Below, one piece after another: positions 1,669-21,651 of a stretch of DNA of 39,733 nucleotides. The stretch comes from Chrysochromulina tobinii (lineage: Eukaryota). Position 1 is the first letter of the stretch; every line of letters begins with the position of its first letter. Under the pieces are notes generated by a model. The model ran no database searches and was not told the DNA's origin. It saw nothing but the letters and a program-made list of their open reading frames with translations. The stretch spans positions 1-39,733 of the forward strand of contig JWZX01003151.1 in assembly GCA_001275005.1 (NCBI GenBank), read 5' to 3'. The position numbers were made by a program, and so were the translations under genes.

Positions 1669-2346
1669 ATGCACACGCTGCGGGCTGGCCTGAGGGCCTC
1701 CCGGCGGCTGCCCGTTCAGCCTGCGCTCGCGATGGCCCCGCTGCGTGCCGCTCCTGTTGCGGCGCAGCGCGCGCTCGTGCTGCAGGATCGCCGTGAGAGC
1801 TCCTCGAAGGCAGCGGTGTCCAAGATGGGAACACTGTCCGTCGACCCGCTCGCAAACTCGCAGGCGGTGCAGGGCGTCGAGTTCATGCTCACCGGCCTCG
1901 ACCGCCTGGTCAATTGGGCTCGCAAGTCCTCGCTCTGGCCCATGACCTTTGGCCTCGCCTGATGCGCGGTGGAGATGATGCACGCAGCGGCGGCCAGGTA
2001 TGACATGGACCGCTTCGGCATCGTTTTCCGCGCGTCGCCCCGCCAGGCCGACGTGATGATCGTCGCCGGCACGCTGACCAACAAGATGGCGCCCGCGCTC
2101 CGCAAGGTCTACGACCAGATGCCGGAGCCGCGCTATGTCATCTCGATGGGCTCGTGCGCAAACGGCGGCGGCTACTACCACTATTCTTACTCGGTGGTGC
2201 GTGGGTGCGACCGCATTGTGCCGGTCGACATCTACGTGCCCGGCTGCCCGCCGACGGCGGAGGCGCTCATCTACGGCCTGCTGCAGCTTCAGAAGAAGAT
2301 CAACCGCGAGAAGTCGGTCGTCAACTGGTTCCAAAAGAACTTGTAG
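1669..2346 (+). CDS. NDUFS7: NADH:ubiquinone oxidoreductase PSST/20 kDa subunit (NuoB homolog), 225 codons, with in-frame TGA at codon 98 (probable selenocysteine)
   Basis: ORFs 1669-1962 and 1969-2346 are one frame: mitochondrial-type R/A-rich presequence, then [16 protein letters not shown][TGA]-CAVEMMH...[15 protein letters not shown]...[42 protein letters not shown], the hallmark PSST sequence. TAG stop at 2344-2346. Confidence 0.95.
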
Positions 2347-2407
2347 GTGTGGCCGACCTTTCGCCATTTCGCGTGCGCGCAACGTTGCTGCCGAGCCGTC
2401 TCGGCGC

Positions 2408-2482
2408 GCCGACCGACATGAGCGCTGCCCCCAGAAACCACCCACCCGGTGGCGGGACGCAGCGTGAGTTCCACGGATCGGC
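2408..2482 (+). promoter_or_regulatory. Eukaryotic type II SECIS-like element in the NDUFS7 3' UTR
   Basis: ATGAG (2418-2422) and TGAG (2465-2468) give the tandem G.A/A.G core. Helix II is CGCTGC/GCAGCG plus CCC/GGG, unpaired AAA lies at 2435-2437, the apical minihelix is CCACC/GGTGG, and helix I is GCCGA-CCG/CGG-A-TCGGC. Confidence 0.85.
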
Positions 2483-20106: not shown

Positions 20107-21651
20107 TCACGCCAGCCCCACCTTCTCGGCAAATTTGACAAGCGGCCCCATCGACTCCGAGTACACCTCAAGCGCGCTTAGCTGGATGCCCCAGCTAAGG
20201 CTCGGATAAGCGTGCATCACGTTGCCGAGTGCGCTCACCTTCATCTTACTGGCGAGCGCCACCGCGATCTCTCCGATCATTTCGCCAGCGCCGGGCGCAA
20301 CGATGGTGGCACCGATCAGCTCGGTACTCCCCGCCTTGTAAACCAGCTTGATGAAGCCATGCGCGTCATTCCGGCCGGCGATGGCGCCATCATTTTTGCG
20401 AAGCGGCTTGATCTTGGCACGCACCTTGCCCACGCCGAACTTGGCCATGGCCGCCGACTCCGAAAGGCCGATACTCGCCACCTCGGGCGAGGTGAACGTG
20501 CACGACGGGATCGACTCGCTATACACGCCGCCAAAGCCGAGTGCCAGGCGCAGCACCGCAGGCAACGACGAGAACACGACGTTGGTCATCGCCGCGACGC
20601 CCTGCTTGACTGCGTAATGTGTATACTGCTTATCGCCCGTGCAATCGCCCGCCGCATACACGCCGCGCGCCGTCGTCTGCAGCGTGCCGTCGACCTTGAT
20701 GCCGCCGCTCGGTGTGAGCTCGACGCCAATCTGCTCGAGGCCGAGCGAGCTTGTGAGTGGCTTGCGACCGACGGCGACGAGCAGCGCGTCGGCTCGCACA
20801 GAGGTCGTCGCGCCGCCCGTGAGCTCGATGGTGACCACCTTGGCGCCACCCGCCTCCGTGGCGACGGACCTAGCGCGCCCCGCGACCACTTGGATGCCCT
20901 CGTCCGCGAACGCCTCGGCGAGCACGCCGCCCGCGTCGCCGTCGGCGTCGGGCAACAGCTTGGGGGCGATGATGGTCACCGAACTGCCCAGCCTCGAGAG
21001 TGCCTGCGCGAGCTCGCAGCCAATCGGGCCGCCGCCAATGACGGCGAGGGACGCAGGGAGGCTCTCGAGTGACCAGATCGACTCGTACGTCAGGTAGTCG
21101 CCCTCGACCAAACCGGGCAGGTCGGGCGGCCGCGGCTGCGCGCCCGTCGCGATCACGATGCCCTTCCTCGCCGTGAAGAGCTCGGTTCTGCCGTCGCTGT
21201 TCAGCGTGACCTCCACCTGCTTGCGGTTGATAAAGCGCGCCGCGCCGAAGATGGGTGTCACGCCGAGCGACTCGAAGACCTCAGGCGAGTCGTCCGCATC
21301 GTAAATGCGCTGCCGAATCAGGTCAAGCTGCGCGCGCACGACCTTCATGTCGACCTTGACGTCGCTCGGACTGCCGCCGGTGCTCACGCCATACTTGTGC
21401 GCGGTGCGCACCGCGTGTGCCGCCTTGGCCGTCGCAATCAGCGTCTTCGACGGCACGCAGCCAACCCATGTGCAGTCGCCACCAAAGACGTTGGCCTTCT
21501 CGATGAGCGCGACCGACTTGCCGAGCGACGCCGCGCCCTTGGCCGCGCCGATGCCAGCGGAGCCCGAACCGATGACGAGCAGGTCAAAGGTGTTCTTCGA
21601 GGCGGAGCCGAGCACAGGAAGGGCGAGGATAAGCTTTGCGAATCTACTCAT
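20107..21651 (-). CDS. Class I pyridine nucleotide-disulfide oxidoreductase (mercuric reductase/dihydrolipoamide dehydrogenase-like flavoprotein) with a short N-terminal leader
   Basis: VIGSGSAG (FAD), GGDCTWVGCVPSK redox disulfide, VIGGGPIGCE (NAD(P)H), YAAGDC, HAYPS. Confidence 0.9.
   Translation of the reverse strand: MSRFAKLILALPVLGSASKNTFDLLVIGSGSAGIGAAKGAASLGKSVALIEKANVFGGDCTWVGCVPSKTLIATAKAAHAVRTAHKYGVSTGGSPSDVKVDMKVVRAQLDLIRQRIYDADDSPEVFESLGVTPIFGAARFINRKQVEVTLNSDGRTELFTARKGIVIATGAQPRPPDLPGLVEGDYLTYESIWSLESLPASLAVIGGGPIGCELAQALSRLGSSVTIIAPKLLPDADGDAGGVLAEAFADEGIQVVAGRARSVATEAGGAKVVTIELTGGATTSVRADALLVAVGRKPLTSSLGLEQIGVELTPSGGIKVDGTLQTTARGVYAAGDCTGDKQYTHYAVKQGVAAMTNVVFSSLPAVLRLALGFGGVYSESIPSCTFTSPEVASIGLSESAAMAKFGVGKVRAKIKPLRKNDGAIAGRNDAHGFIKLVYKAGSTELIGATIVAPGAGEMIGEIAVALASKMKVSALGNVMHAYPSLSWGIQLSALEVYSESMGPLVKFAEKVGLA

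Follow-up and report, generated by a model that had tools for sequence, protein, structure and literature searches.

A conserved in-frame UGA, very likely read as selenocysteine, at an N2 ligand position of prymnesiophyte NDUFS7

We found that the nuclear gene for NDUFS7/PSST in prymnesiophyte algae carries a conserved in-frame UGA that is very likely read as selenocysteine (Sec) with a SECIS-type hairpin in the 3′ UTR, so that selenium would be one of the four ligands of the iron–sulfur cluster N2. On this sequence evidence NDUFS7 very probably represents a selenoprotein family new to eukaryotes. In the wider reading, to which we give a good probability, N2 of mitochondrial complex I would have a selenium ligand in most prymnesiophytes, making NDUFS7 the first selenoprotein among the core subunits of a eukaryotic respiratory chain, and the same ligand would have become Sec separately in anaerobic bacteria.

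The NDUFS7 gene and its ligand positions

The gene lies in a window of 39,733 nucleotides (the whole stretch of DNA analysed, contig JWZX01003151.1 of Chrysochromulina tobinii). The window is eukaryotic nuclear DNA, with IFT80, TRM13, EMP70 and PP2C among the neighbours according to profile matches, and mixed-culture and freshwater metagenome runs contain the stretch. NDUFS7/PSST is encoded on the forward strand at 1669–2346 as an intronless coding sequence of 225 amino acids when the TGA is counted as Sec. A first-pass annotation had placed a UGA at an N2 ligand of this protein, and the TGA is indeed there, at 1960–1962 in the context TTT GGC CTC GCC TGA TGC GCG GTG GAG ATG ATG. The frame reads MTFGLA, then this stop, then CAVEMM, and stays open to the TAG at 2344–2346, the TGA being the sole stop ahead of it. 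The other Cys positions of the gene are TGC or TGT throughout. Against PF01058 (Oxidored_q6) the protein scored 103.3 bits (E 1e-29; curated cut-off 27), and its best PDB match was a mouse-type mitochondrial NDUFS7 (E 2.4e-95), the top match shown reading CC; the closest solved structures are mammalian and plant NDUFS7. Over 201/201 aligned residues it is identical to P0346, a JGI model from Chrysochromulina parva, which identifies the source as a haptophyte of the C. parva/tobinii type and bears out the haptophyte assignment of the first-pass annotation.

The protein belongs to the same family as mitochondrial NDUFS7/PSST/NUKM (bacterial NuoB, Nqo6; PF01058) and has the same four ligand positions. 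By sequence, conservation and spacing, the TGA is U98 and takes the first place in the tandem pair of N2 ligands; the second is C99 (TGC, 1963–1965, +), and the GSCA and PGCPP motifs noted in the first reading hold the third and fourth positions, C163 (2155–2157, +) and C193 (2245–2247, +). The spacing of 0, +1, +65 and +95 equals that of C85, C86, C150 and C180 of Yarrowia, so that all four N2 ligand positions are present and the first is U. The available text of PMC8042128 gives these four residues as the Yarrowia N2 ligands and describes the tandem pair as strained, with C85 the most mobile. Compared with known NDUFS7, the haptophyte protein differs in that its first tandem ligand is a UGA accompanied by a SECIS-type element in the 3′ UTR.

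If the UGA is decoded in the established eukaryotic way, Sec would be inserted by SBP2, eEFSec and tRNA-Sec while the protein is translated in the cytosol. The resulting precursor would be imported into the mitochondrion by an Arg-rich presequence, predicted from composition as an Arg/Ala/Leu-rich N-terminal extension at 1669–1785 (+, end approximate); the first 39 residues are rich in Arg and include no acidic residue. The 4Fe-4S cluster N2 would be held by U98, C99, C163 and C193, that is, by one selenolate and three thiolates. Selenium at the strained, most mobile tandem ligand would probably give steadier ligation or a shifted potential, which we take as the likeliest effect because Cys-type eukaryotic PSST proteins are otherwise ∼85–89% identical to the window protein in the core. 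Sec would fine-tune the subunit and confer no new activity.

Of nad genes, haptophyte mitogenomes carry only nad1–6 and nad4L in the available part of PMC9551565, which leaves NDUFS7 without a spare copy in the organelle. The earlier description of haptophytes as having large selenoproteomes agrees with the 96 selenoprotein genes given for Emiliania huxleyi (PMC7539508, section 5), and nine tRNA-Sec genes are given for D. lutheri (PMC13578239, available text); the machinery for Sec is thus documented in other haptophytes. ARAGORN found no tRNA gene in the window. Head-to-head with NDUFS7 lies an ORF of 384 amino acids (375–1529, −), coiled-coil-like, which contains a poly-Gln run and matches no Pfam family; the two starts are ∼140 bp apart and may share a promoter.

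The codon and the 3′ hairpin in related loci

Type II SECIS elements are built from an AUGA core, an AAA and an apical mini-stem in this arrangement. Downstream of the window gene, where the first-pass annotation had seen a SECIS-like hairpin, there is such an element at ∼2406–2482 (+), 456 nt past the UGA: helix I, the AUGA core (2418–2421), helix II, AAA (2435–2437), the apical mini-stem and UGAG (2465–2468). Its AUGAG (2418) begins 72 bases past the TAG and is followed by a 42-nt arm that includes the AAA and the mini-stem and then by the UGAG, with the lower helix enclosing all of these. The hairpin folds at −51.9 kcal/mol (z −3.47), and none of 200 shuffles was equally stable. The element recurs with compensatory changes in relatives, as detailed below. 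An Rfam scan of the 3′ region in the window gave no SECIS match; the Rfam gathering threshold (35 bits) is a database threshold and not a biological criterion. The covariance model described below found no second SECIS in the window, giving only a weak partial match (E 0.81).

Contigs of JGI metagenomes were searched for a pattern that left the codon at the site free and required the context NWARKSS...CAVEMMH, which is haptophyte-like, so that TGA forms in other eukaryote lineages would escape this search. Among the 43 loci recovered, the codon was TGA in 34, TGT in 7 and TGC in 2, and it was never TAA, TAG or TGG. Clustered at 95% identity, the 34 TGA loci fall into 19 types, which are 78–94% identical to one another, and third positions flanking the codon differ among these loci while the TGA is constant. 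The expectation that related algae would have TGA at the same codon is thus borne out. Of the nine Cys loci, eight are non-haptophyte by sequence and GC content, and the ninth (L011) is Isochrysis-like. The same break is seen in protein records: when residues 45–97 of the query were compared with proteins of 53–170 amino acids there were 324 matches, and the top 90 of the 120 listed end exactly at ...FGLA.

A sequencing error or a young pseudogene has in its favour only the general rarity of stops in NDUFS7, and we give it next to no credence. Against it stand the TGA in 34 of 43 loci with never a TAA or TAG, and the constraint on the codons that follow: when the window gene was compared with 13 loci that are intronless or spliced, pN/pS was 0.145 before the TGA and 0.094 after it, indicating that the region behind the apparent stop is translated and under constraint. 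In addition, window positions 1669–2482, gene and hairpin together, are identical to loci L016 and L032 of the same species, and the same-species loci L015 and L041 differ from them at two synonymous positions. We therefore regard error and pseudogene as refuted by the conservation data.

The hairpin was sought in the same loci. We could place the true stop in 31/34 TGA loci and 8/9 Cys loci; L006, L017, L025 and L038 were left out. Within 300-nt UTRs, a SECIS descriptor found an element in 27/31 TGA loci (22/31 when the AA was required) and in none of the eight Cys loci; it found none on reverse strands and 7 in 620 shuffles (1 with AA). A covariance model built from 17 elements matched 30/34 TGA loci (E ≤1.6e-4) and 0/9 Cys loci, as expected if, as proposed earlier, the SECIS is co-conserved with the TGA. 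In a MAFFT alignment the AUGA is invariant and its flanks are unrelated, and both sides have changed in 8 of 12 pairs, a value that none of 500 shuffles reached. When helix II was anchored on the core, 77 of 85 cells in the first five positions paired, while swapped arms gave 2.9/5 and none of 10000 permutations did as well. These covariation figures lean upward because pairing was one of the grounds on which the 17 aligned elements had been selected and because 16 of the 30 model-matched loci are training rows.

Four TGA loci lacked a covariance match. In L017 and L025 the contig stops before the gene's stop, and L010 and L006 look like assembly chimeras: L010 equals L014 through the coding sequence and 96 nt of UTR and then departs inside the hairpin, and L006 enters unrelated sequence ahead of its stop. 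Elements of five TGA loci have the AUGA/GA core and, in place of the apical AA, a C-rich stretch or GAC (L014:1494–1571, L021:1865–1941, L022:253–328, L026 and L031); L022, L026 and L031 have GUGA.

The haptophyte gene shares with eukaryotic type II SECIS selenoproteins (RF00031; algal FeS oxidoreductase and FeS reductase) a UGA at a conserved Cys, the AUGA/GA core, the apical AA and the mini-stem. The core AUGA_GA and apical AA are described for SECIS elements in the available text of PMC11227280. The haptophyte elements differ from RF00031 in scoring below the Rfam cut-off; of 12 loci tested, Rfam SECIS_1 aligned to one, L042, at 32.3 bits (cut-off 35; E 0.0045). NDUFS7 also differs from eukaryotic selenoproteins in being a core respiratory-chain subunit, in which Sec would be a cluster ligand and not a thiol-redox site.

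Transcripts, gene models and cysteine-reading records

The public C. parva model P0346 lacks the 24 residues encoded by 1926–1997 (+), a putative GT-AG intron of 72 nt whose removal takes out the UGA and both tandem ligands. Splicing as in this model would dispose of the stop: the GT and AG are suitably placed, the frame is kept and P0346 uses them. However, both tandem N2 ligands would be lost, and the two splice dinucleotides are present in just 12 of the 34 TGA loci. A spliced relative, moreover, retains the stretch. Locus L042 equals L029 minus two GT-AG introns (166 and 70 nt), with 700/702 aligned bases identical, and it keeps both the TGA and the hairpin. The mature mRNA of this relative keeps the UGA and the SECIS-type hairpin, in line with the earlier view that the UGA stays unspliced. 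Six RNA runs contain 0.96–1.00 of 99 sampled words of 1600–2600, one of them 1.00, figures to which library DNA may contribute. RNA contigs matched to the codon region came from two of four runs (25 contigs per run); they were short, derived from other organisms and with few exceptions <95% alike, and the TGT readings among them belong to those other organisms. We give scarcely any weight to removal of the codon by splicing; the 1926–1997 intron is most likely a gene-caller artefact.

Gene callers mishandle the gene in other ways too, as had been foreseen. The public record P0123 (76 amino acids) ends at the TGA, and automatic calls put W (P0379, JGI) or L (P0143) at the Sec position. Public protein sets hold NDUFS7 cut short, split or mis-spliced, which makes the complex I of these algae appear defective; the present finding corrects this annotation.

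Some records read Cys at the site. In the 90% protein cluster of the species, 15 of whose 36 members were listed, four 225-aa records with C98 lie on 17 ENA contigs and eleven truncated records lie on 118 contigs. The C98 records are P0002, P0128, P0134 and one that is identical to the window protein except for the C. Three N-terminal haplotypes occur both as C98 and as truncated records, and the C98 form is found in ENA only, which suggests that the C98 records are a translation artefact. For ten other truncated clusters that were looked up, no full-length Cys record was found among the matches listed, which makes it possible that the C98 records are real Sec-to-Cys alleles of freshwater populations.

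These records bear on two further explanations. The first is that the functional copy is another allele or a paralog that encodes Cys and that the TGA copy is dispensable or segregating, a situation named beforehand as one that would refute the Sec reading. The four C98 records in the same cluster, one differing from the window protein only in the C, speak for it, and this part of the objection stands in that such records exist in ENA. On the other hand, the C98 haplotypes are also truncated on more contigs, Cys is seen in ENA only, and P0379 reads the TGA as W. All four JGI loci of the same species have TGA under a pattern that permitted TGY, and the TGA form is constrained across the 19 types. 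Real Cys alleles would equally fit a Sec/Cys polymorphism and not a dead gene. We judge it highly improbable that a Cys copy does the work.

The second is that UGA is recoded wholly or largely to Cys, by a Euplotes-like code or by insertion of Cys via the Sec pathway under selenium scarcity, in which case N2 would stay sulfur-ligated. Cys insertion at Sec codons under selenium shortage is known from work on mammalian thioredoxin reductase, and the species is found in freshwater samples, where selenium can be scarce; the C98 records fit this explanation as well. Against it, 4 of 31 orthologous loci use TGA as their terminal stop, and the window ORF at 20107–21651 (−) also terminates at TGA, so UGA cannot be a general Cys codon here; the gene writes its other Cys residues as TGC or TGT. 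Furthermore, the SECIS-type element goes with the TGA, and Cys loci lack it. Decoding as Cys is thus, in our estimate, very unlikely. The Sec reading put forward in the first-pass annotation is supported by the joint conservation of TGA and SECIS and by the UGA kept in the spliced relative.

The ORF at 20107–21651 (−) encodes a pyridine nucleotide-disulphide oxidoreductase with a CxxxxC site. As a candidate Sec thioredoxin reductase it was rejected: it has no GCUG-type end, and no match to the SECIS model lies nearby.

Origin, bacterial counterpart and significance

Diacronema, Isochrysis and Tisochrysis have Cys at the site. In a quick tree of 70 rows, with the codon's column masked, which supports haptophyte monophyly, the Diacronema-type Cys rows are sister to a set of 21 rows (SH-aLRT 96) that holds TGA rows together with Isochrysis, Tisochrysis and the Isochrysis-like locus L011, all three Cys, and these three nest beside L013 and L002, which have TGA and the hairpin. 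A careful tree of 26 rows keeps the nesting of the Isochrysis group (98/94, a six-row group); in that tree the haptophyte base and monophyly are unsettled, and monophyly of the TGA-only haptophytes was not rejected (p-AU 0.073). Because the Cys rows are nested among TGA rows, the likeliest history, though not a proven one, is that the TGA was gained in or near the prymnesiophyte ancestor, with a probable reversion to Cys in some Isochrysidales. Haptophyte NDUFS7 falls inside the mitochondrial-type clade, apart from the bacterial rows (100/100 in the 26-row tree, 99 in the 70-row tree), in a sampling with no clean alphaproteobacterial outgroup set.

Bacterial nuoB genes with TGA at the same ligand were found at 112 loci, reading FGLA-U-CAIEMM, with CAIEMM after the TGA in all of them and at least 100 open codons past it in 107/112. 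Among the 80 listed, they are mostly from Nitrospirota and Thermodesulfobacteriota, with some from Chloroflexota and others. A single clade of all TGA rows was rejected (p-AU 0.0005, with five bacterial TGA rows and a group named after the tree had been seen), and by the same value horizontal transfer from bacterial TGA-nuoB was rejected. This argues for convergence: the bacterial genes have their TGA at the same ligand position as the haptophyte ones and a separate origin.

In archaeal HdrA and FrhD/MvhD/VhuD, Sec ligates Fe–S clusters. Like the NDUFS7 proposed here, these are selenoproteins of Fe–S electron-transfer complexes; they differ in having other folds and in serving anaerobic pathways, and they are neither complex I nor mitochondrial. 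The available text of PMC11227280 names them as archaeal selenoprotein families. The first-pass annotation knew of no described Sec form of PSST, and we likewise found no report of Sec in NDUFS7 or NuoB in the searchable full-text literature, a body that leaves most subscription papers outside. The main text of an algal selenoproteome survey (PMC7539508) does not have NDUFS7 among its family names and contains none of the terms NADH, ubiquinone, complex I and Chrysochromulina, and its abbreviation list holds no NDUFS7-type family. NADH, NuoB and quinone are likewise absent from the main text and one supplement file, possibly incomplete, of a 2026 bacterial database paper (PMC13326102).

Prymnesiophytes make up a large share of the phytoplankton in oceans and lakes, and if the Sec reading is true, their respiration would be directly dependent on the supply of selenium. 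Several Chrysochromulina species are reported to require selenium (PMC6254913, available text), for which Sec in NDUFS7 would be a concrete candidate reason. Ubiquinone receives its electrons directly from N2, a cluster whose strained tandem-Cys ligation and potential, which is high and varies with pH, stand at the centre of the discussion on the mechanism of complex I (PMC8042128, available text). If the conversions to Sec were separate, they would mark this N2 ligand as a site where selenium is advantageous. A swap of selenium for sulfur at the more mobile tandem ligand, together with cultured and near-identical Cys relatives (Isochrysis, Tisochrysis and Diacronema), would make the role of the ligand testable. 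NDUFS7 would also add to the eukaryotic selenoproteome a family in which Sec ligates a respiratory-chain cluster, a role that differs from the one in the usual thiol-redox enzymes. The Cys revertants (Isochrysidales and possibly the freshwater C. parva alleles) would then be natural controls.

Among the Isochrysis-like loci, neither the descriptor nor the covariance model found a SECIS-type element in the Cys locus L011. This locus has a close counterpart in L013: L013 has TGA and the hairpin (1035–1110, −), and L011 has TGC and no hairpin, which makes them a natural pair in which to study the loss of Sec.
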